In this document: one piece after another, positions 4,246 to 22,769 of the stretch
Position numbering within the stretch: position 1 is the first letter of the stretch
How the letters are laid out: every line of letters begins with the position of its first letter
Assembly (NCBI RefSeq): GCF_900155475.1
Contig: NZ_FXAM01000001.1
Coordinates: 2,776,881 to 2,800,880, forward strand
Source: Methylomagnum ishizawai
GTDB lineage: Bacteria; Pseudomonadota; Gammaproteobacteria; Methylococcales; Methylococcaceae
Direction: 5' to 3'
DNA length: 24,000 bases
Position numbers and translations under genes: made by a program
Notes under the pieces: generated by a model
The model's input: only the letters and a program-made list of their open reading frames with translations
The model's database searches: none
Told to the model about the DNA's origin: nothing

Positions 4246-5283
4246 TCAACCATCCCGTCCCACCCCGACCCGAAACGCCCCATCATCCCGCCGTTCCATC
4301 CGAATCTCCACGTCTAAGAAGCGCCGGATCACCCCGGCATTGGTGATAGCGTGCTGGCTCGGCGTCCCCGTGGTGAACGACCCGGCCCCGGCCAGGGCCA
4401 AGGGCAGCAACAATTGATCGGCCAGATACGGACCCACCGCCGCTCCCGCCGCGAGATAACGCCGCGCCTGCTCGACGGTCCGCTCGGCCACGGTTTCCGC
4501 CGCCACGCCCTTTTCCGCGAAGCCGGAAAACACCTCGGTCACTTGTTCATGTTCCAAGGTCAGCAACAAGGCGTTGCCCGGCCCCTGGTCGTTGGCGAGA
4601 CCGCGCAGGTGGAGTTGTTCGGCGTTCCAACCCAGGCGCTTGCCGACCACGTCCAGTTCCCGGCGGGCAATGTGGACCGGCAGGGCGGCGATGAAGCTTT
4701 CCGCGTAGGCTTGGACGCGGGGGCCGCGTTCCTCCAGGACCAAGGGCCGCAGCCGGGGCGCGGGCTCGATGTGGGCGCTGAAACCGCCGCCGCCCGCCGG
4801 ATAGAAACCGAAGCGCTGGAGTTCCAGGGACACCTCCGCGCCCATGCGCCGCAGCAGCGGCAGGAAGGCCCGCTCCAGGAAATGGAACGGCGGCGACATG
4901 GGGTTGTGGGTGCCGCCCTGGAGTTCGACCCGGCTCGGCGCATCGGCCCGCAGCAAAGCCGGGAGGACGGTCTGGAACACCAGGGTACAGCTTCCCGCCG
5001 TGCCGATGGCGAAGCGGTAGTCGCCGCCCCGGACCAGCCCCGGCGCGAAGCCCAAGGTTTGCGAACCGGCCCGGTCGCCTTCGACCGTGGCCCCGCAAAT
5101 CTCCGCCGCCGCCCGCACGGCGGTCAGGTGTTGGCGCATCAGCCCTGGGGTTTTGCGCTTGGCGCGGATATTGACAATGCGGAACGGCGTCCCGGTACAC
5201 AGAGACAGCGACAGCGCCGTCCGCAATACCTGTCCACCACCCTCGCCTTCCGAACCGTCCAGTTCCAAGTATTCATTCACCAT
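4246..5283 (-). CDS. rtcA: RNA 3'-terminal phosphate cyclase
   Basis: 345-aa ORF. The N-terminus LELDGSEGEGGGQVLRTALSLS...GLMRQHLTAVRAAAEICGATVEG and later RGGDYRFAIGTAGSCTLVFQTVLPAL and GPYLADQLLLPLALAG align closely with E. coli RtcA as I recall it. A GGGGG Shine-Dalgarno lies 6 nt upstream of the ATG. Confidence 0.95.
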   Translation of the reverse strand: MVNEYLELDGSEGEGGGQVLRTALSLSLCTGTPFRIVNIRAKRKTPGLMRQHLTAVRAAAEICGATVEGDRAGSQTLGFAPGLVRGGDYRFAIGTAGSCTLVFQTVLPALLRADAPSRVELQGGTHNPMSPPFHFLERAFLPLLRRMGAEVSLELQRFGFYPAGGGGFSAHIEPAPRLRPLVLEERGPRVQAYAESFIAALPVHIARRELDVVGKRLGWNAEQLHLRGLANDQGPGNALLLTLEHEQVTEVFSGFAEKGVAAETVAERTVEQARRYLAAGAAVGPYLADQLLLPLALAGAGSFTTGTPSQHAITNAGVIRRFLDVEIRMERRDDGAFRVGVGRDG

Positions 5284-5318
5284 TTCATGCCCCCGGAATA
5301 TACTTCACATCATAATCC

Positions 5319-5348
5319 TTGACCATCGGGATTATGCCGCATTAAAGT
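5319..5348 (+). promoter_or_regulatory. Candidate sigma70 promoter for the DUF1152-like gene
   Basis: TTGACC (5319-5324), an 18-nt spacer, then TAAAGT (5343-5348), about 36 nt upstream of the ATG at 5384. It sits in the A/T-rich divergent intergenic region shared with rtcA. Motif match only. Confidence 0.25.
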
Positions 5349-5383
5349 CCACATCGAACAAAACGCTGCTTATAGGTTTTAAA

Positions 5384-6325
5384 ATGAAAATTCCCTTTTT
5401 CGACGCCTTATCGGACTCGAAATCCATCCTGATCGCGGGCGCGGGTGGTGGTTTCGACGTGGCAAGTGGAATACCCATCTATTTATATCTACGCAAACTC
5501 GGCAAGCCCGTGGTTCTGGCCAACTTATCCTTCACCGCATTACCGTCCACGGACAGCGATGAAATCTGTCCAGGCACCTATCAGATCACCCAAGAATCGC
5601 GGGATATACCTTACTTTCCAGAGAAATTCATCCTGGAATGGCTAAGCGCCAGGGGCGAGAATCCCGATATCTACGCTTGCTCCAACAAGCTGGGGGTTAT
5701 CCCGCTCGGCCATGCCTATTCGGTGATCGCCCAGAAACACGGTATCGACACACTCATCCTGGTCGATGGCGGCACGGATAGCCTGATGTTCGGCGATGAA
5801 GTAGGGGTCGGCACCATCGTCGAGGATGCCTGTTCCATCATCGCGGCGGCCAAAGTTCCCATCGCCCATCGCTATCTGGTCGCGACCGGGTTTGGTGTCG
5901 ATTATTTCCACGACCTCAATCACCATGCCTGCCTGGAAAATATCGCCACCCTTACCAGGGACGGCGCATACCTGGGTGCCATCGCCTTGACTCAGGATAT
6001 GGACGAGGGACGGGGTTATTTGGAGTTGGTGGAATACCTGAACCGGCGGCTGCCGGGATATATGAGTATCGTCGCCAATTCCATAGCCAGCGCCATCCGG
6101 GGTGAATTCGGGAATTTCCATGTCACCCCCAGGACGAAAGGCAGCGAGTTGTTCATCAATCCCTTTATGGGGTTATTTTGGTTTTTCCAACTACGCGGCG
6201 TGGCTGCGCGGATCGCGTTCGCTTCCAAAATCGACACCAGCGAGACCATGCACGAAGTGGCCCAGGGTTTTCGGCTATTCCGCGCCATGACCATCCGGCG
6301 CACACCGAAAAATATCCCCCTCTGA
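5384..6325 (+). CDS. Uncharacterised glycine-loop protein (DUF1152-like by recollection), opposite strand between rtcB and rtcA
   Basis: The tracked ORF starts at 5087, but that upstream part overlaps rtcA. I prefer the ATG at 5384 (MKIPFFDALSDSKSILIAGAGGGFDVASGIP...). A beta-strand followed by a GAGGGFD loop, and a later LILVDGGTDSLMFGDE motif, resemble what I remember of DUF1152 (PF06626) proteins. My hand count over five 60-nt lines gives about 53% GC, against about 60% or more in rtcB and rtcA. Confidence 0.7.
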   Translation: MKIPFFDALSDSKSILIAGAGGGFDVASGIPIYLYLRKLGKPVVLANLSFTALPSTDSDEICPGTYQITQESRDIPYFPEKFILEWLSARGENPDIYACSNKLGVIPLGHAYSVIAQKHGIDTLILVDGGTDSLMFGDEVGVGTIVEDACSIIAAAKVPIAHRYLVATGFGVDYFHDLNHHACLENIATLTRDGAYLGAIALTQDMDEGRGYLELVEYLNRRLPGYMSIVANSIASAIRGEFGNFHVTPRTKGSELFINPFMGLFWFFQLRGVAARIAFASKIDTSETMHEVAQGFRLFRAMTIRRTPKNIPL

Positions 6326-6335
6326 CGCGGCCCGC

Positions 6336-7556
6336 CTAACCCTTGACGCACACCACCTGCTTGAGGGTATGCACGATCTCCACCAAATCCGCCTGCGCCC
6401 GCATCACCGCGTCGATGTCCTTATAGGCCAGGGGAATCTCGTCGATCACATTCTTGTCCTTGCGGCATTCCACGCCTTCGGTGGCCTGGATTTGGTCGGC
6501 CACGCTGTAGCGGCGCTTGGCCTCGGAGCGCGACATCAAACGCCCCGCGCCGTGGCTGCACGAGCAGAACGACTGCGGCTCGCCCTTGCCGCGCACGATG
6601 TAGGACCGCGCCCCCATCGAACCGGGGATGATGCCGAGTTCGCCTTCCCGCGCCGACACCGCGCCCTTGCGGGTGACGAGGATGTTCTTGCCGAAATGGT
6701 GTTCGCGCTGCACGTAGTTGTGGTGGCAATTCACCGCCTCGACCTCGGCCTCGAACGGCTGGGGCATGATGCGGCGGATGGCCTCGACCACCTGACGCAT
6801 CATCAAGGCCCGGTTGCGGCGGGCGTAATCCTGCGCCCATTCCACCGCTTGCACATAGTCGGTGAAATGTTCGCTTTGCTGCGGGAAATAGGCCAAATCG
6901 GCATCCGGCAGGTTGATGAAATAGCGGCGCATGTCCTCCTTCGCCAGTTCGATGAACAGGTTGCCGATGGCGTTGCCGACGCCCCGCGAGCCCGAGTGCA
7001 GCATGAACCAAACTCGATCCACCTCGTCCAGGCAGACCTCGATGAAGTGATTGCCAGTGCCGAGCGTGCCCAGGTGGTTGCGGTTGTTGGTCTTGGCGAG
7101 CTTGGGGTATTTCGCGGTGATCTCGCGGAATTCCGGCTCCAGTTCGGCCCAGACTTCGTCCACCTCCGGCGGCGGATTCGTCCAGGCGCCCACATCGCGG
7201 CTGCCGGGCGTGCGGCCATGGGGGACGGCTTTTTCGATGGCCGTGCGCCAGCCATGCAGGTGGTCGGGCAGGTCGGCGGCGGTCAGCGAAGTGCGGGCGG
7301 CGATCATCCCGCAGCCGATATCGACCCCGACCGCCGCCGGGATGATGGCCCCGAGGGTCGGGATCACGCTGCCGATGGTGGAGCCCTTGCCGAGATGCAC
7401 GTCCGGCATCACCGCCAGGTGGCTGAAGATGAACGGCAGCCGGGCGATGTTGAAAAGCTGCTGCTTGGCTTCTTCCTCGACCGGGACGCCACGGGTCCAC
7501 ATCTTGATGTGGTGGCCTTGGGTGGGCTGGAGGACTTCGTAGGATTCGTGGTTCAT
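6336..7556 (-). CDS. rtcB: RNA-splicing ligase RtcB (3'-phosphate/5'-hydroxyl RNA ligase)
   Basis: 406-aa ORF. MWTRGVPVEEEAKQQL...PFIFSHLAVMPDVHLGKGSTIGSVIPT, GTLGTGNHFIEVCLDE, NCHHNYV, SFCSCSHGAGR and the C-terminal LKQVVCVKG are near-identical to E. coli RtcB as I recall it. Confidence 0.97.
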   Translation of the reverse strand: MNHESYEVLQPTQGHHIKMWTRGVPVEEEAKQQLFNIARLPFIFSHLAVMPDVHLGKGSTIGSVIPTLGAIIPAAVGVDIGCGMIAARTSLTAADLPDHLHGWRTAIEKAVPHGRTPGSRDVGAWTNPPPEVDEVWAELEPEFREITAKYPKLAKTNNRNHLGTLGTGNHFIEVCLDEVDRVWFMLHSGSRGVGNAIGNLFIELAKEDMRRYFINLPDADLAYFPQQSEHFTDYVQAVEWAQDYARRNRALMMRQVVEAIRRIMPQPFEAEVEAVNCHHNYVQREHHFGKNILVTRKGAVSAREGELGIIPGSMGARSYIVRGKGEPQSFCSCSHGAGRLMSRSEAKRRYSVADQIQATEGVECRKDKNVIDEIPLAYKDIDAVMRAQADLVEIVHTLKQVVCVKG

Positions 7557-7580
7557 GGGCTTTCCCCTGGAATAAAAGGC

Positions 7581-7700
7581 GCGATGACAAGGGATGATGA
7601 AATTCCTATTCGCTACCGGCCATAGGCCGACCGGGACTTGAACCCGGAACCTGCGGATCGCTCCGCCGCTTTACCATGTAATTCCATCGGCATTCATCGC
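7581..7700 (-). ncRNA. Y-RNA-like module 6 (T-arm plus GNRA hairpin, degenerate D region)
   Basis: Minus-strand RNA: GCGAUGA-AUGCC-GAUGGAAUU-ACAUGGUAAAGC-GCGGA GCGA UCCGC-AGGUU-CCGGG UUCAAGU CCCGG-U-CGGCC UAU GGCCG-GUAGCGAAUAGG-AAUUUCAUC-AUCCCUUG-UCAUCGC. It ends 24 nt upstream of the rtcB ATG. Confidence 0.7.
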
Positions 7701-7711
7701 TAAAAAAGCTT

Positions 7712-7838
7712 GGGCGACAAGGGGTTGGTGAAACTTGCCCGGTGTTCTACCACTGAACTACGGTCCTATGGGTAGCGGGACCGACGGGGATCGAACCCGC
7801 GACTTCCGGGGTAGATGTAGTTCCACCCGCATTCGCCC
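7712..7838 (-). ncRNA. Y-RNA-like module 5 (permuted tRNA-like, YrlA-type topology)
   Basis: Minus-strand RNA: GGGCGA-AUGCG-GGUGGAAC-UACAUCUA-CCCGG-AAGUC-GCGGG UUCGAUC CCCGU-CGGUCC CGCUACCCAUA GGACCG-UA-GUUC AGUGGUA GAAC-A-CCGGG-CAA-GUUUCACC-AACCCCUUG-UCGCCC. CCGGG pairs with CCCGG as an anticodon-like stem that continues into the connector helix and the terminal stem. Confidence 0.8.
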
Positions 7839-7856
7839 AAAATTATCGAAAAAAGC

Positions 7857-7965
7857 GGCGCGACAAGGATCGGCAAGACTTCTGCTCTACCGACTGAGCT
7901 ACCGCGCCGAAGCACGGGCCGGGATCGAACCGGCGACATGAGGTAGTCCTGCCCGCATTCGCACC
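7857..7965 (-). ncRNA. Y-RNA-like module 4 (permuted tRNA-like)
   Basis: Minus-strand RNA: GGUGCGA-AUGCG-GGCAGGACU-ACCUCAUGUC-GCCGG UUCGAUC CCGGC-CCGUGC UUCG GCGCGG-UA-GCUC AGUCGGUA GAGC-AGA-AGUCUUGCC-GAUCCUUG-UCGCGCC. It has a canonical D-arm and T-arm. The acceptor stem is closed by a UUCG tetraloop, and a 9-bp connector takes the anticodon-stem position. Confidence 0.8.
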
Positions 7966-7985
7966 AAACAGCCATCAAAAAAGAT

Positions 7986-8106
7986 GGGCGACAAGGTGTG
8001 GTGAAACAAGGCGCTCTGGCCTCTGAGCTACGGTCCCGAAGGACCGGCGGGAATCGAACCCGCGACCTCCCGCGTGACAGGCGTGTAGTTCCACCGGCAT
8101 TCGCCC
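7986..8106 (-). ncRNA. Y-RNA-like module 3 (permuted tRNA-like, tRNA-Asp-related)
   Basis: Minus-strand RNA: GGGCGA-AUGCC-GGUGGAAC-UA-CACGC CUGUCAC GCGGG-AGGUC-GCGGG UUCGAUU CCCGC-CGGUCC UUCG GGACCG-UA-GCUC AGAGGCCA GAGC-G-CCUU-GUUUCACC-ACACCUUG-UCGCCC. The T-arm, a UUCG-capped acceptor stem and the D-arm are all present, in permuted order. Confidence 0.8.
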
Positions 8107-8125
8107 AAAATCGTCATAAAAAGCT

Positions 8126-8230
8126 GTGCGACAAAACGGGGTTGGACTCGAACCTGGGTCGCCCCAGGCTCCGGGACTTGAACCCGAGCGGTTGCCCGCC
8201 TACCTGATGTAGTCCAACCGGCATTCGCAC
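8126..8230 (-). ncRNA. Y-RNA-like module 2 (T-arm plus GNRA-capped hairpins)
   Basis: Minus-strand RNA: GUGCGA-AUGCC-GGUUGGACU-ACAUCAGGUAG-GCGG GCAA CCGC-U-CGGG UUCAAGU CCCG-GAG-CCUGGG GCGA CCCAGG-UUCG-AGUCCAACC-CCGUUUUG-UCGCAC. It has the terminal stem and a 9-bp connector. It also has a T-arm with a canonical 7-nt UUCAAGU loop and two GNRA-capped hairpins. There is no clear D-arm. Confidence 0.7.
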
Positions 8231-8242
8231 ATCAACCTAAGT

Positions 8243-8324
8243 GCGGAGGCCCGCGACAAGAATTCGGTGTGATCGCGCTATCGGAACAATCGATGTAATC
8301 ACACCGGCATTCGCGGGCCTCCGC
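8243..8324 (-). ncRNA. Y-RNA-like module 1 (simple stem-loop, YrlB-like, no tRNA-like element)
   Basis: Minus-strand RNA: GCGGAGGCCCGCGA-AUGCC-GGUGUGAU-UACAUCGAUUGUUCCGAUAGCGCG-AUCACACC-GAAUUCUUG-UCGCGGGCCUCCGC. It has a 14-bp terminal stem and an 8-bp second helix. It starts 7 nt after the rsr stop codon. Confidence 0.75.
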
Positions 8325-8331
8325 CCAACAC

Positions 8332-9894
8332 TTACAAAACCATCTCTTCGATCACGCCGGCCCAATGCGCCGCCGTCAATTGCCCGGCCGCGAACGCCGC
8401 CAGCACCTTGAACACCTCGTCGGAGAACCCGCCGATGTTCAAAATATCCCCGCGTTCCGCCGCCTGGGTCGTGCCGTAGGGCTGGATGTCGATGCAGACC
8501 AAGCGGGCCTCCGGGTTGCGCTGGCGGAAGATTTCCCATTCCTTCAAGGTGGCCGTGGCCCCATGCCGGACAGCGTCCACCCAGGATTGATTATCCGAGA
8601 CGAACACCACCAGATCGGCCCGGGCCTTTTCGCGGTTCAGCAAGGCCAAAGGAGCGCTGCAATTGGTTCCGCCGCCCCCGACCGCCGCCAGCCTTTCGGC
8701 ATTGGCCAGCACCGTGGCGCGGGCATCCAAAGCCACCGACACCACATCGGTCTCGAAGGGCAAGACCCGCGTCTCGGGGTTCTTGCGCAGCAACGCCGCC
8801 GCCACCAAGGCCGCCACATCGACACAGCGCACCGACGTGGTCGCCGATCCGCGTTGGCCCGTGACCGGGGAACGCATCGAACCGGACACGTCCGGGCAGA
8901 CCACCACCCGGCCCGCCAATTCCGGCACGTTGGCGAGCGCGGTTTCCATAGCCTGCTGCAAAGCTTCCCGGACCTGGGCGGGCACGCCTTGCCCGACCGA
9001 GCGGTAGGCCGCCAGCAATTGGTACGGGAACACCTTGGCGCGGGCGATGGCCGCCGGATCGCGCAGTTTGTCCGCCACCACCTCCGCCATGCCTTCCATG
9101 GCAAACACGCCATGCCGGGCAAAGGTGTTCAGATTCATCCGCACCATCTGCCAACCGCTACAGCGGGCGATCCGCGCCCATTGTTTGGTGTCCAGATTCA
9201 AAGCCGTCAGCATTTGGAACGGCACCTCCGGCGGTTCGCCGCCGGGGTCGCGCTTCCAGGCTTCAAAAGCCTGGGTGATGGGTGGCAAGGCCGCCGCATC
9301 GTAGGGCTTGCCGATCAACCAGGCGAAAAAGGCTTCGCGCCAGGGCTCGGCGGGCTTGGGATGCACCATCTTCACCACATCGACCAGGGAGGGCGCGTTG
9401 CCCACGGCGGCGTTCAGCAAATCCTTCTCGGAAGCTTGGTTCAGCCAGTGCTGCACCAGCTTCTTGGGCCGGGTGCCCAGGGACTTCCGGCCCACCGCGC
9501 CGCTCCGCAAAATCTGCACGAAGTTCCGCAGCATCCGGCCATTGCCGACCACCCGGTCGAACACCTGGGGCAGGAATTCCGGTCCCCGCAGGGTCAACAC
9601 CGCCGCCAACAAGGCCGGGATATCTTTCATATAACCCCGCTCGCGGCAGTAAACGGCGGTCTTGGCGATGAAGCGCGGCTCCACCTCGCGGCACAGGTCG
9701 AGGATCGTCGCCAATTGCGCTTCGGCCCCGGCGTAGAACGTGCCGTTCAGGCAGCCGGTCGCGGCGTATTGGGCCAGCCGGTGCTTGGGGCTGAAAGCAT
9801 AGGCGGGAGCGCCTTCGTGGTTACGGCCATCGGCCACCGGCAGGGCACGGCCCCGCGTGCTTTGGAACAATTGTGGATTCGCCATGGCGTTCAT
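8332..9894 (-). CDS. rsr: Ro60-related (TROVE plus vWA domain) RNA-binding protein Rsr
   Basis: 520-aa ORF. The N-terminus (NHEGAPAYAFSPKHRLAQYAATGCLNGTFYAGAEAQL) matches the TROVE/Ro60 pattern I recall. The C-terminal part (VVCPDVSGSMRSPV...GGGTNCSAPL...VVFVSDNQSW) looks like a vWA/MIDAS domain. Its position upstream of Y-like RNAs and rtcB, and divergent from rtcR, fits the known rsr locus layout. The second in-frame ATG at 9885 is an alternative start. Confidence 0.93.
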   Translation of the reverse strand: MNAMANPQLFQSTRGRALPVADGRNHEGAPAYAFSPKHRLAQYAATGCLNGTFYAGAEAQLATILDLCREVEPRFIAKTAVYCRERGYMKDIPALLAAVLTLRGPEFLPQVFDRVVGNGRMLRNFVQILRSGAVGRKSLGTRPKKLVQHWLNQASEKDLLNAAVGNAPSLVDVVKMVHPKPAEPWREAFFAWLIGKPYDAAALPPITQAFEAWKRDPGGEPPEVPFQMLTALNLDTKQWARIARCSGWQMVRMNLNTFARHGVFAMEGMAEVVADKLRDPAAIARAKVFPYQLLAAYRSVGQGVPAQVREALQQAMETALANVPELAGRVVVCPDVSGSMRSPVTGQRGSATTSVRCVDVAALVAAALLRKNPETRVLPFETDVVSVALDARATVLANAERLAAVGGGGTNCSAPLALLNREKARADLVVFVSDNQSWVDAVRHGATATLKEWEIFRQRNPEARLVCIDIQPYGTTQAAERGDILNIGGFSDEVFKVLAAFAAGQLTAAHWAGVIEEMVL

Positions 9895-9925: not shown

Positions 9926-9941
9926 TGCAGCCGCCGTGCCA
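9926..9941 (-). promoter_or_regulatory. Sigma54 (-24/-12) promoter for rsr, the Y-RNA array and rtcB
   Basis: The minus strand reads TGGCACGGCGGCTGCA. It has the GG and GC elements at the canonical spacing of the TGGCACG-N4-TTGCW consensus. The -12 element lies about 30 nt upstream of the rsr ATG, and the sigma54 activator gene rtcR is divergent from it. Confidence 0.7.
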
Positions 9942-10075: not shown

Positions 10076-11668
<1,593 letters not shown>

Positions 11669-11941: not shown

Positions 11942-12577
11942 ATGACCACCATCGCTTCCATCGACGAACTCGACCGCTTCCTCTCTTCCACCGCGATGCC
12001 GGAACACGGCCTCAACCTGCACGGACTCGACGGCCTGTGCGCGGCGCTGGCCCTCGTGCCCGGCTCCGTGCCTTCCGAGCAATGGCTGGCCTGGGTCTGG
12101 GATAGCGGGGAAGGCACGCAACAGCCCGAATTCGCCGACGCCGAGCAGGAACAACGCCTCACCCGGCAAATCCTCACCCATTATGAGCGGGTCAAGGACG
12201 CCATCAAGGCGCAAAGCTTCGCGCCGCATCCCACCCCCGCCGACGGCGACGCGATTCAGAACGCGCAACGCTGGTGCCAGGGCTTCGTGACCGGCATGTC
12301 GCTGTCCCCCGACCCTTGGGACAAGCTCCTGGACCGCCACAGCGAAATGCTCTCGCCCATGCTGTTGCTGGGCACCGAGCGCGGTTGCAAAACCATCTCG
12401 CAGAGCGGCACCCGCTTCGAGGAAGTCGCCGCCGCCCTGCCCGCCGCGGTCGCCGCCCTCCACGCCCATTTCGCCGCTCAAACCAGCCCGGTACGCAAAG
12501 CCGAAGGCAAGGTGGGCCGCAACGAGGCCTGTCCTTGCGGTTCCGGCAAGAAGTACAAGAAATGCTGCGGCGCGTAA
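11942..12577 (+). CDS. yecA: YecA-like UPF0149 protein with a C-terminal SEC-C metal-binding motif
   Basis: 211-aa ORF ending in [14 protein letters not shown], the SEC-C motif. The N-terminal part ([13 protein letters not shown]...PSEWL) resembles the UPF0149/YgfB-like domain. Size and architecture match E. coli YecA. Confidence 0.75.
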
Positions 12578-19950: not shown

Positions 19951-21792
19951 ATGAGCCCGCCCCACACCGCCGCAGCCTTCGACATCGACGCTTTCCTGGG
20001 CACCCTGACCCAGAGGCCGGGTGTCTATCGGATGCTGGACGACCAGGGCGAGGTGATCTATATCGGCAAGGCCAAGAATCTGAAGAAACGGGTGTCCAGC
20101 TATTTCTCGCCCAAGGACGCCCCGCCCAAGCAACAGGCGATGGTGGCCCGCATCCGCGCCATCGACGTGACCGTGACCCAGACCGAGGGCGAGGCGCTAC
20201 TGCTGGAAAGCCAGCTCATCAAGCGCTACCAGCCGCGCTATAACATCCTGCTGCGCGACGACAAGGGCTATCCCTTCATCTACATCTCCACCCACCAGGA
20301 ATTCCCCAGGGTGGCGTTCCACCGCGGGGCCAAGGCCAAACCGGGACGCTATTTCGGACCCTATCCCACCAGCGCCGACACGGTGCGGAGGAACCTCAAA
20401 TTGCTGCAAAAAACCTTCCCGGTGCGACAGTGCGAGGACTCCTTCTACGCGAACCGTTCCCGCCCCTGTCTGGAATACCAGATCGAGCGCTGCACCGCAC
20501 CCTGCGTGGGCTTGATCGACGCGGCGGCCTATGCGGAAGATGTACGGAATACGGTGGCCTTCCTGGAAGGCGAGGGCGGGCATTTGATCGACACCCTGGC
20601 CCAGCGCATGGAGCAGGCGGCGGCGCGGCTGGATTTCGAGCGGGCGGCGCGTTACCGCGACCAGATCGCCAGCCTCCGCACCCTCCTGGAAAAACAAGCG
20701 GTGCATGGCGAACATGGCGACCTGGATATCATCGCCTGCGCCCTCGAAGGCAACGTGGCCTGCGTGCGGATGGTGTTCATCCGTGGCGGCCAGCAGATCG
20801 GCGACCGCAGCTTCTTCCCGGCGATGCAAGATAGCCACGAACCGGGCAGCCTGCTCGCCGCTTTCATCGGCCAGTATTACCTGGGCAAGCCCATCCCCAA
20901 GGAAATCCTCCTCAGCCATCCGGTCGAGGACGCGGGATTGCTGGAAGACATGCTGGCCCACGAGGCCGGCCACGCCGTGAAGCTCTCGGCCCGGCTGCGC
21001 GGCGAACGGGCGAGGCGCGTGCAGATGGCCGTGACCAACGCCCAGCACGACCTCGCCCTCAAACTCGCCAGCCGCCGCGATATCCACGCCCGCTTCCTGG
21101 AACTGGGTGAGGCGCTGCATTGCCCACAGCCGCCGCACCGCCTGGAGTGTTTCGATATCAGCCATACCCAGGGCGAACAGACCGTGGCCTCCTGCGTGGT
21201 GTTCGACCGGCAAGGCCCGGTCAAATCGGCCTACCGGCGTTTCAATATCGAGGGCGTCCCACCCGGCGACGACTACGCCGCCCTGGCCCAGGCCACCGCC
21301 CGGCGCTATCAAAGAATCAAGGGTGGGGAAATCGAAGCGCCCGATATCCTGTTCATCGACGGCGGTAAAGGCCAGGTCGCCGCCGTGCGGGAAGCCTTGG
21401 CGGCGCTGGACCTGGACGCGCTCCGCATCATCGGCGTCGCCAAGGGACCGGACCGCAAACCCGGCATGGAAGTCCTCATCCCGGCGGAAACCGGCCAGCC
21501 GCTCCTGCTGCCGCCCCATTCGGCGGCTTTGCACCTGATCCAGCAAATCCGCGACGAAGCCCACCGCTTCGCCATCACCGGCCACCGCCAGCGCCGGGCC
21601 AAGGCCAAACAACAATCGACGCTCGACACCATCGCCGGCCTCGGCCCCAAACGCCGCCAACAGCTCCTGCGCCAATTCGGCGGCCTCCGGGAAATCAGCC
21701 GCGCCGGGGTGGATGCCCTCAGCCGGGTAGAGGGCATCAGCCAACAATTGGCACAACGCATTTACGACACCTTCCACGAACGGGAACCCTGA
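19951..21792 (+). CDS. uvrC: Excinuclease ABC subunit C
   Basis: 613-aa ORF. It has an N-terminal GIY-YIG module (PGVYRMLDDQGEVIYIGKAKNLKKRVSSYF) and a UVR motif region (AARLDFERAARYRDQIASL). A C-terminal endonuclease and HhH region follows (LDTIAGLGPKRRQQLLRQFGG). pgsA follows directly, as in E. coli. Confidence 0.97.
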   Translation: MSPPHTAAAFDIDAFLGTLTQRPGVYRMLDDQGEVIYIGKAKNLKKRVSSYFSPKDAPPKQQAMVARIRAIDVTVTQTEGEALLLESQLIKRYQPRYNILLRDDKGYPFIYISTHQEFPRVAFHRGAKAKPGRYFGPYPTSADTVRRNLKLLQKTFPVRQCEDSFYANRSRPCLEYQIERCTAPCVGLIDAAAYAEDVRNTVAFLEGEGGHLIDTLAQRMEQAAARLDFERAARYRDQIASLRTLLEKQAVHGEHGDLDIIACALEGNVACVRMVFIRGGQQIGDRSFFPAMQDSHEPGSLLAAFIGQYYLGKPIPKEILLSHPVEDAGLLEDMLAHEAGHAVKLSARLRGERARRVQMAVTNAQHDLALKLASRRDIHARFLELGEALHCPQPPHRLECFDISHTQGEQTVASCVVFDRQGPVKSAYRRFNIEGVPPGDDYAALAQATARRYQRIKGGEIEAPDILFIDGGKGQVAAVREALAALDLDALRIIGVAKGPDRKPGMEVLIPAETGQPLLLPPHSAALHLIQQIRDEAHRFAITGHRQRRAKAKQQSTLDTIAGLGPKRRQQLLRQFGGLREISRAGVDALSRVEGISQQLAQRIYDTFHEREP

Positions 21793-21794
21793 TT

Positions 21795-22388
21795 ATGGAG
21801 TTGAACCTCCCCACTTACCTGACCTTGCTGCGGATCGTCCTGATTCCCGTGCTGGTCGCGCTGTTCTACCTGCCCTGGCCGGGTGCCCATGCCGCCTGCG
21901 GCCTGGTGTTCATGGTGGCCGGATTCACCGACTGGCTGGACGGCTACCTGGCCCGCAAGCTGGGGCTGGCCACGCGCTTCGGCGCCTTCCTCGACCCGGT
22001 GGCGGACAAACTGATGGTCGCAGTCACCCTGGTCTTGATCGTGCAGGCCGACCCCAGCCCCTTCGTCGCCATCGCCGCCGCGATCATCGTCGGGCGGGAA
22101 ATCACCATCGCCTCGCTGCGGGAATGGATGGCGGAAATCGGCCAGCGCAAAAAGGTCGAGGTCTCGCAACTCGGCAAATGGAAAACCATGGCCCAAATGG
22201 TTTCCATCACCCTGTTGCTATTCGGCATGGATATTTGGCGCGAGACCTTGCAGGGTTTCGGCCAATTCCTATTATCCATCTCGGCCCTATTGACACTGTG
22301 GTCGATGATCGTGTATTTACGCGCCGCCCTGCCCTCGTTCGCCGACCAGCCCAAACCCAGTGTTGACAAGCCCGTCTTGGACCCTTAA
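21795..22388 (+). CDS. pgsA: CDP-diacylglycerol--glycerol-3-phosphate 3-phosphatidyltransferase
   Basis: 197-aa ORF starting 3 nt after uvrC. The CDP-alcohol phosphotransferase motif is present (DWLDGYLARKLGLATRFGAFLDPVADKL), with multiple hydrophobic segments. Confidence 0.95.
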   Translation: MELNLPTYLTLLRIVLIPVLVALFYLPWPGAHAACGLVFMVAGFTDWLDGYLARKLGLATRFGAFLDPVADKLMVAVTLVLIVQADPSPFVAIAAAIIVGREITIASLREWMAEIGQRKKVEVSQLGKWKTMAQMVSITLLLFGMDIWRETLQGFGQFLLSISALLTLWSMIVYLRAALPSFADQPKPSVDKPVLDP

Positions 22389-22405
22389 AATATTCGGACA
22401 AGCAA

Positions 22406-22481
<76 letters not shown>

Positions 22482-22486
22482 AATAT

Positions 22487-22516
22487 AAAAAAGCCGTGTT
22501 TATCACGGCTTTTTTA
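22487..22516 (+). terminator. Intrinsic terminator after tRNA-Gly
   Basis: An A-run (22487-22492) precedes the stem AGCCGTG (22492-22498), the loop TTTAT and the stem CACGGCT (22504-22510). Six T residues follow directly (22510-22515). Confidence 0.75.
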
Positions 22517-22590
22517 TTGCCCCGAGATAATCCCCGCCTACTAAGTTTATCGCCCGATCCGGGACGCGCTTCCGCCCGCAAACATAAGTA

Positions 22591-22619
22591 TTGCTTCGAC
22601 CGGGAGCCTCCGCTATAAT
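22591..22619 (+). promoter_or_regulatory. Sigma70 promoter upstream of tRNA-Cys
   Basis: TTGCTT (22591-22596), a 17-nt spacer, then a perfect TATAAT (22614-22619). A GC-rich discriminator-like TTCGCGC follows. The promoter lies about 75 nt upstream of tRNA-Cys. Confidence 0.6.
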
Positions 22620-22695
22620 TTCGCGCTCTTCCGCCGGGGAATAAAGCCAAGCGATCCGCCAAAGCTTTGAAACCACTTCCCGGAAGAAGCCTAAA

Positions 22696-22769
22696 GGCTG
22701 AGTGGCAGAATGGTCATGCAGCGGCCTGCAAAGCCGTGTACGCCGGTTCGATTCCGACCTCAGCCTCCA
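22696..22769 (+). tRNA. tRNA-Cys (anticodon GCA)
   Basis: 74 nt. Acceptor GGCTGAG/CTCAGCC; anticodon arm CGGCC-TGCAAAG-GCCG, which gives anticodon GCA; T-loop TTCGATT; encoded CCA. As I fold it, the T-stem GCCGG/CCGAC contains one C-A mismatch. Confidence 0.85.

Follow-up and report, generated by a model that had tools for sequence, protein, structure and literature searches.

Within a stretch of 24,000 nucleotides (nt) from Methylomagnum ishizawai – the whole of which is called the window here – the minus strand carries rsr (8332–9894), encoding the bacterial orthologue of Ro60, and rtcB (6336–7556), encoding an RNA ligase. Between the rsr stop codon (8332–8334) and the rtcB ATG (7556) lies a non-coding spacer of 775 nt (7557–8331), and in it stand six tandem modules resembling the bacterial Y RNAs YrlA and YrlB, which are the subject of this account. 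The rtcB gene follows directly downstream of the array in the same orientation, and rtcR (10076–11668, plus strand), encoding a sigma-54-dependent activator, runs divergently from the set of rsr, modules and rtcB. A further gene, rtcA (4246–5283, minus strand), encoding an RNA 3'-phosphate cyclase, is co-oriented with rtcB, albeit not contiguous with it. A coding reading of the spacer was considered and rejected: the open reading frames (ORFs) lying wholly inside it are only short (36–70 amino acids) and fall in mixed frames.

The genes themselves are readily assigned. The rsr product matches the Pfam family vWA_Ro60 (3.5e-18) as well as TROVE, and its top match in a comparison with the PDB is the Deinococcus radiodurans Rsr structure 2NVO (4.7e-23, residues 21–506), with the Xenopus and human Ro60 structures matching likewise. 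The rtcB product matches Pfam RtcB at 2.6e-131, and that of rtcR matches NCBIfam NF038308 (RNA_repair_RtcR) at 811 bits, for a cut-off of 650, together with Pfam RtcR and Sigma54_activat. For rtcA, the corresponding evidence is NCBIfam NF003246 (457 bits, cut-off 352) and Pfam RTC.

Between rtcR and rsr, 31 nt upstream of the rsr ATG, lies a putative sigma-54 promoter: a −24/−12 element on the minus strand (9926–9941, TGGCACGGCGGCTGCA) with one mismatch to TGGCAC-N5-TTGCW. By itself, such a motif occurs at chance frequency in 24 kb; a sigma-54 element is nonetheless found 48–126 nt upstream of rsr in 25 of 52 related loci, which agrees with the sigma-54-driven transcript that a preliminary description of this DNA had proposed. 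A second sigma-54-like motif (TGGCACCAGCGTTGCG, 12264–12279, minus strand) lies inside an unannotated ORF of 247 amino acids, the number of such motifs being again at chance.

Six modules between rsr and rtcB

That the modules number six, all in one orientation – as first described – is the result of three kinds of search. A repeat search found six copies of a 23-nt element (GCGAAUGCCGGUUGGACUACAUC-like) spaced 86–142 nt apart. The pattern GAATGC-N7-AYTAC has six matches in the window, all of them in the spacer and on the minus strand, for 0.03 expected from shuffled sequences. Finally, a regular expression joining 5' GAAUG to YUUGUC 3', with at least three flanking base pairs, returns exactly six modules on the minus strand. 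Taken with their bounding helices and numbered W1 to W6 from the rsr end, these lie 8–751 nt past the rsr stop codon, i.e. on the same strand and within the 4 kb that serve as a criterion for YrlA, and together cover 676 of the 775 nt. The spacer had been described as 770 nt long and fully tiled; its location between rsr and rtcB stands, but it measures 775 nt, and the units are separated by 8–18 nt, with U-rich sequence in four of the five gaps.

Folded singly, every module shows the same basal architecture – a closing helix, an internal loop and a second helix – followed in all six by an A-YUAC-AU element; both the terminal helix and the second helix with an (A)CUACAU-like element had been correctly predicted. 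Common to all six, too, is the core GAAUGC. It replaced the published YrlA motif GNCGAAN0-1G as a criterion here, the strict form fitting two of the six modules, W3 and W5 (GGCGAAUG). In its place W1, W2 and W4 carry (C/U)GCGAAUG, and W6 carries GAUGAAUG, with a compensating change in its 3' strand. Of 149 homologous modules, about 62% have the initial G of the strict motif.

Above this shared base, the modules differ. When the Rfam models were run, as had been suggested, YrlA (RF02553, gathering score 69 bits) matched five modules, two of them above the gathering score: W3 (7985–8107, minus strand; 75.0 bits) and W4 (7856–7966, minus strand; 74.1 bits). W5 (7709–7841, minus strand; 67.1 bits, E=5e-15) falls 1.9 bits under it, with every structural feature of the family present. 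These three are the only modules with the YrlA domain order of T-arm, closed acceptor-like stem, UA and D-arm hairpin, and they are the three for which D-arms and capped acceptor stems had been claimed; the stems are 6 bp long in each. In W3, the T-arm is followed by a UUCG-capped stem, UA and the D-arm. W5 is a paralogue of W3 (72% identical) with a cap loop of 11 nt, and the acceptor-like stems of the two are alike (CGGUCC/GGACCG).

W2 (8125–8231, minus strand; 36.0 bits, E=4.8e-6; fold z = −4.6) has a T-arm-like hairpin between two GNRA-capped hairpins and no D-arm. W6 (7581–7700, minus strand; 36.8 bits), which ends 24 nt before the rtcB ATG, consists of a GNRA-capped hairpin, a T-arm and a capped acceptor-like stem, with the D-arm hairpin again absent. 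Both align to the YrlA model only through local ends that skip the D-arm, and the E-values of W5, W6 and W2 (5e-15 to 5e-6) refer to a search of 901 nt. The earlier count of five units with tRNA-like T-arms is borne out by the UUCGAUY or UUCAAGU loops of W2–W6.

The remaining module, W1 (8243–8324, minus strand), is a long hairpin of the YrlB-like kind. Its closing helix has 14 bp and its second helix 10 bp, GAAUGC/UUCUUGUC forming the internal loop between them, and at the apex sits a small hairpin whose loop, AUUGUUC, is pyrimidine-rich, as expected of the long-hairpin YrlB type. W1 folds at −42.8 kcal/mol (z = −4.7) and has no T-arm, capped acceptor-like stem or D-arm. Rfam YrlB (RF02565) gives it 22 bits (E=0.12) against a gathering score of 97, and the R1 model 40.2 bits. 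A low YrlB score is to be expected outside Salmonella enterica, since the original BLASTN search with YrlB found orthologues only among other S. enterica serovars (PMC4201824).

Conservation, order and number of the modules

A scan with the Rsr protein yielded 63 genome and 35 metagenome rsr loci (L numbers below), their Rsr proteins being 42–80% identical to that of the window and none from the same organism. As even the nearest, from Methylococcaceae-like assembled genomes, are only 73–80% identical, there is no strict orthologue of the whole array. A covariance model was built from W2–W6, leaving out W1, whose 3' end MAFFT had misaligned, and the D-arm pairs, which were aligned inconsistently. 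It found 168 matches at E≤1 in the genome loci, a single one of them off the rsr strand and almost every one immediately downstream of rsr, and 59 at E≤0.01 in the metagenome loci, on the rsr strand throughout. Across the 150 best matches, 97.4% of cells pair, compared with 38–52% when the 3' partners are slid by 1–3 columns, and 23 of the 24 pairs show compensatory changes, i.e. on both sides (six of six in helix 1, seven of seven in helix 2).

As this alignment had been fitted to the model, the covariation analysis was repeated on structure-free MAFFT alignments with RNAalifold. For the W6 type (22 sequences), 21 of 32 pairs are compensatory and 97.6% paired, with 3–8 such pairs in slid controls; for the W1 type (23 sequences, the window copy and 22 relatives), 16 of 18 are compensatory. 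Covariance-model matches and compensatory changes are thus clearly present, and the strong covariation, together with the Rfam matches, upholds the original identification of the modules as Y-RNA-like (YrlA/YrlB).

Modules in the 84 loci that have any were assigned to the window module they most resemble. In pairwise comparison with the closest loci, W1 has counterparts in L064a, L002a and L003a (69–76% identical), and W2 in L002b (81%; L002:5655–5765) and L009b (72%; L009:1681–1794), whose helices are kept through compensatory changes. W3 and W5 both match L002d, L009d/e and L003b (72–79%); W4 has an orthologue at L009:2039–2158 (77–78%), and W6 is matched by L002e (85%) and L003c (72%). In L002, the W4 orthologue (5774–5978) is 205 nt long, with an insertion of about 90 nt between T-arm and D-arm, in the region of the acceptor-like stem; the length of this stem in YrlA differs among species (bioRxiv 10.1101/312249).

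Written as types, the window reads B, 2, A1, A2, A1', 6, and nearly the same order is kept in the closest relatives: B, 2, A2, [gene], A1, 6 in L002 and B, 2, A2, A1, [DUF3825 gene], A1' in L009. By this comparison, the window's sixth module is an additional A1-type copy that did not arise recently. The protein gene inside the array in both relatives is an observation in its own right: the product of L009:2406–3278 is a DUF3825 protein (E=4e-11), and a Pfam search with the L002 ORF (about 5990–6588) gave no match. In an alphaproteobacterial locus, L047, a palindromic repeat (CCCCGG..TTGA.CGGGGATCC...) stands between Y modules in two copies (5680–5770 and 6130–6240), which look like elements of the repetitive extragenic palindromic (REP) type invading the array.

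More broadly, the W1 type accounts for 42 modules among the related loci and is usually first in its array, and the W6 type for 28, being last in 24 arrays. The modules are conserved in type and order across genera, which argues against their being redundant. The weaker suggestion that they act as distinct adaptors is compatible with this conservation of structural types.

The proposed survey of module numbers at related rsr loci places the array at the top of a continuum. Among the 84 bacterial and metagenome loci, one module is found in 16, two in 28, three in 19, four in 18 and five in three. Six thus exceeds them all, the nearest relatives having five. A second six-module locus was considered in L047 and dismissed, because the candidate at 6427–6542 scores 10.5 bits and its ends are unpaired; the locus was counted as five.

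An additional scan of IMG/VR viral contigs, which returned 80 rsr loci, shows that six is not an upper limit. L127 (2092–2913) has seven tight tandem modules just upstream of rsr, after four tRNA genes; L099 (5004–6820) has nine downstream of rsr; and L149 (664–2890 and 4748–4887) has eight, alternating with tRNA genes in a cluster of 34 such genes in 6.2 kb. These viral modules share with the window the GAAUGC...AYUACAU...YUUGUC signature on the rsr strand, and Rfam YrlA matches some of them, none at the gathering score; unlike the window, their arrays hold seven to nine modules, adjoin or interleave with real tRNA genes and have no rtcR. In the Myxococcus phage Mx1, which has an Rsr homologue, no module was detected within 6 kb. 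The array had been called unusually large, and against the 84 bacterial and metagenome loci it is the maximum; arrays of four or five are nonetheless common, and viral ones reach seven to nine.

Published numbers give some context. A survey counted 355 putative YrlAs in 276 genomes, 254 of them bacterial and 22 from phages, and each bacterium studied has two or more Y RNAs (PMC4201824); Thermus phage phiLo has two (PMC4201824; PMC12135203). Public sequence data thus contain arrays of five to nine, which the published accounts consulted here do not discuss; the viral arrays are larger than any described in them. Copy number alone is a modest quantitative extreme and no new principle.

The W6 type and the tRNA-likeness of the modules

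For the W6 type, RNAalifold on plain alignments gives a consensus four-way junction closed by a long-range GAGC/GCUC helix. Its upstream strand, GGUAGAGC, corresponds to tRNA positions 18–25 and its downstream strand, UAGCUCAG, to positions 8–15. Between the two come a 5–6-bp tetraloop hairpin in the position of the anticodon arm, AGGUC in that of the variable loop, a T-arm and a capped acceptor-like stem (e.g. L007:5971–6098 and L013:4175–4298 in alignment A4). In this consensus, the W6 type is a whole tRNA cloverleaf, circularly permuted in that it opens at the D-loop, where the Ro-binding stem is joined on. Canonical YrlA is built differently: its D-arm is a hairpin, and the anticodon arm has given way to the Ro stem. 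The long-range helix itself hardly varies; the 22 sequences show a single compensatory pair, so that covariation supports it weakly. In an Rfam scan covering five W6-type orthologues, no YrlA match was found at E≤0.01.

The 5' two-thirds of W6 (7623–7693, minus strand) also align end to end with the Rfam tRNA model, at 27.5 bits for a gathering score of 29. In that alignment the acceptor stem is AUGCCGA/UCGGCCU, a pairing in competition with the Y-type fold; the resemblance may be left over from a tRNA origin.

Precedents for such a rearrangement exist in the permuted tRNA genes of some algae and an archaeon, and in the proposal that YrlA arose from a dimeric tRNA; in the W6 type, too, tRNA elements are permuted. 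It differs from permuted tRNA genes in that the break in the D-loop is bridged by a Ro-binding stem and a tetraloop replaces the anticodon loop. The dimeric-tRNA model predicts intermediates of this kind (bioRxiv 10.1101/312249), and the W6 type would fit it as a form that has kept more of the first tRNA and less of the second.

The further idea that each module mimics a different tRNA finds no support here. W1 has no tRNA-like part, W3 and W5 have the same acceptor-like stem, and anticodon loops are missing; with generic D-arm sequences and no anticodons, no module can be assigned to a tRNA identity. ARAGORN found no tRNA gene over 7500–8400. The Rfam tRNA model does score 30.4 bits, above its gathering score, at 7776–7908 (minus strand), a match that was rejected as an artefact because it reaches over the spacer from the D-arm of W4 to the T-arm of W5; ARAGORN is negative there. 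The same cross-module artefact reaches 45.1 bits at L009 2103–2233, and tandem YrlA genes are in this respect an annotation trap. Annotation by gathering score would here report two YrlA genes and one spurious tRNA; as only two of the modules would be recorded, Y RNA numbers in genomes are probably under-counted.

How many of the six modules are functional Rsr ligands may also be asked. Only W3–W5 might be, with W1, W2 and W6 being decayed copies or elements that protect or process the transcript. This would suit their Rfam scores, the lack of a D-arm hairpin in W2 and W6 and the degenerate D-like stem of W6. Decayed copies, however, would not co-vary, and the W1 and W6 types, to which the 42 and 28 modules counted above belong, do so across genera, the W6 type standing at the end of 24 arrays; the W2 orthologues, at 81% and 72% identity, keep their helices; and W1, W2 and W6 all retain the Ro-binding-type loop exactly. 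We consider this reading unlikely.

A probable RNA-repair operon with an expanded Y RNA segment

The reading favoured here, to which we give a probability of about 0.8, is that of an RNA-repair operon of the rsr-yrlBA-rtcB(A) kind, controlled by RtcR and sigma-54, whose non-coding segment has been expanded to six Y RNA genes. The closest known counterpart is the rsr-yrlBA-rtcBA locus of Salmonella Typhimurium (YrlA RF02553, YrlB RF02565; PMC7790460, PMC4201824, bioRxiv 10.1101/312249). Both loci have a divergent rtcR, a sigma-54 promoter or its putative equivalent, and then rsr, Y RNAs and rtcB on one strand. In both, a long-hairpin Y RNA comes first and is followed by Y RNAs with a tRNA-like domain, and the RNAs share a 5' CGAAUG-type motif, a helix closing the 5' and 3' ends and a 6-bp capped acceptor-like stem. 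They differ in that the window has six modules instead of two – three full YrlA paralogues and two types without a D-arm hairpin among them – and in that rtcA does not immediately follow rtcB.

In Salmonella, the activating signal for RtcR is tRNA fragments that carry a terminal 2',3'-cyclic phosphate, and rsr-yrlBA-rtcBA is then expressed as one operon under its control (PMC7790460). In the window, activation of RtcR would lead to transcription from the sigma-54 promoter proposed upstream of rsr, and a single transcript would span rsr, the six modules and rtcB; as no promoter-like site is present in the 24-nt gap between W6 and rtcB, rtcB would have to be transcribed through the array. The modules would be excised at the short spacers (U-rich behind five of the six modules), much as Y RNAs are cut from a common precursor in Mycobacterium smegmatis and D. 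radiodurans (PMC4201824).

Each would then be bound by Rsr through the conserved basal helix and the GAAUGC/YUUGUC internal loop. Ro60 contacts chiefly the 5' strand of the Y RNA helix (bioRxiv 10.1101/312249), and the same source, citing Chen et al. 2013, states that Salmonella Rsr binds both YrlA and YrlB. Stabilisation by bound Rsr and modification by the tRNA enzymes TruB and DusA are further criteria of the YrlA family (Chen et al. 2014). Co-transcription, processing to six RNAs, binding by Rsr and a division of labour among the modules are what we infer from the arrangement. The differing distal parts would each offer Rsr another effector or decoy surface: a plain hairpin in W1, a T-arm with two GNRA-capped hairpins in W2, a full tRNA-like elbow – T-arm, capped acceptor-like stem and D-arm – in W3–W5, and in W6 a distal part of the type that folds as a cloverleaf opened at the D-loop. 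Candidate partners would be PNPase, to which a Y RNA tethers Rsr in D. radiodurans (PMC4201824), tRNA-handling enzymes and anticodon nucleases. Alternatively, the distal domains might serve as anticodon-less tRNA decoys; a similar idea, of YrlA as a competitive inhibitor of an anticodon nuclease, has been raised before (PMC7790460).

The ends of the modules are marked by a U-run of 4–6, which begins 1–3 nt past the basal helix in five of the six (W2–W6, 7578–8124). Across the 149 homologous modules, T makes up 50–58% at four or five positions around the 3' end of the match, for a background of 20%, and a T-run of at least four lies near the 3' end in 33%, for a background of 3.5%. Such runs might serve in processing, signal the 3' end or terminate transcription weakly. 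Separately, the spacer between W3 and W4 contains a terminator-like hairpin of five pairs, CCAUC-UUUUUU-GAUGG (7972–7987, minus strand), the number of such sites being at chance.

Several points weigh against the operon reading. The published strict motif is confined to W3 and W5; W1, W2 and W6 lie far under the Rfam gathering scores; and the long-range D-stem of W6 and of L002e is degenerate (AAGC/GCGA, two of four pairs). If the U-runs acted as partial terminators, the modules could be unequally expressed. Finally, an ORF on the opposite strand (5087–6325, plus strand; DUF1152, E=5.7e-16), convergent with rtcB, separates rtcA from rtcB, so that the operon is not identical to that of Salmonella and rtcA may not be co-transcribed with rtcB. 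The listed GTG start of this ORF overlaps rtcA by about 200 nt, and its true start is therefore probably later.

The U-runs and the position of the rtcB start, 24 nt past W6, would also suit an array acting mainly in cis, as a structured rtcB leader – an attenuator made of stem-plus-U-run units, or a sensor. Elsewhere, however, the same modules lie upstream of rsr or without an adjoining rtcB, on phage contigs among others. A simple terminator scan yields sites at chance, its single local match being the weak 5-bp spacer hairpin, and homologous RNAs are stable and bound by Rsr in Salmonella (bioRxiv 10.1101/312249) and in M. smegmatis and D. radiodurans (PMC4201824). A mainly cis-acting leader accordingly seems improbable. 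A degenerate cluster of tRNA genes or pseudogenes, or a generic extragenic repeat family, can be all but set aside: the two tRNA-model scores and the tRNA-like T-arm and D-arm sequences speak for it, but ARAGORN is negative, the higher score is the cross-spacer artefact, anticodon loops are lacking and the signature occurs nowhere else in the window and tracks rsr in other genomes.

Beyond Salmonella, the operon with its six putative Y RNAs can be set beside two other bacterial systems and the metazoan one. In M. smegmatis (YrlA and YrlB) and D. radiodurans (Yrn1 and Yrn2), as in the window, Y RNAs lie beside rsr on the same strand, one of them with a tRNA-like module and one a long hairpin; unlike in the window, they precede rsr, with two or more per species, and are not part of an rtcB operon (PMC4201824). 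M. smegmatis YrlA, which is cut by RNase P, has an acceptor-like stem of 7 bp (PMC4201824), whereas those of the window modules have 6 bp.

Metazoan Y RNAs such as hY1, which are bound by Ro60, share with the modules a terminal helix formed from both ends and a U-run after the stem, and the post-stem U-runs of the window recall their oligo-U tail. The hY1 strands are 5' GGUCCGA and 3' CUUGAC, and their counterparts in the window are G(N)CGAAUG and CUUGUC. They differ from the modules in having no tRNA-like domain and in being transcribed from separate RNA polymerase III genes, whereas the modules would be excised from an operon transcript. Vertebrates have two to four Y RNA paralogues per genome (PMC4201824).

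Away from the array, the region 19951–22769 holds uvrC (19951–21792), an ORF of 197 amino acids (21795–22388), tRNA-Gly(GCC) and tRNA-Cys(GCA). We take this order to resemble the gammaproteobacterial uvrC-pgsA-glyW-cysT, which is consistent with the Methylococcaceae-like best Rsr matches.

In sum, the locus represents a known system at the high end of copy number for cellular genomes, and what it adds is modest: an order of types, and one type outside current models. It pairs one Rsr with six putative ligands of four or five structural types, which form a natural series as to the presence or absence of a D-arm and of an anticodon-arm-like hairpin. It thereby touches on why YrlA-type Y RNAs resemble tRNAs at all, a question still unanswered; what Rsr and the Y RNAs do is not taken up in the study of the Salmonella operon (PMC7790460). 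Tentatively, and as a possibility we rate well below the operon reading itself, rsr loci may encode ordered arrays of distinct Y RNA classes in place of ‘YrlA plus YrlB’, including the W6 type, whose orthologues Rfam did not detect, and lying, on phage-like contigs, beside or between tRNA genes. If so, the W6 type would be a living intermediate in the origin of YrlA from a dimeric tRNA, and Ro60 would have at its disposal a set of adaptors that do not duplicate one another, or else tRNA decoys lacking an anticodon.

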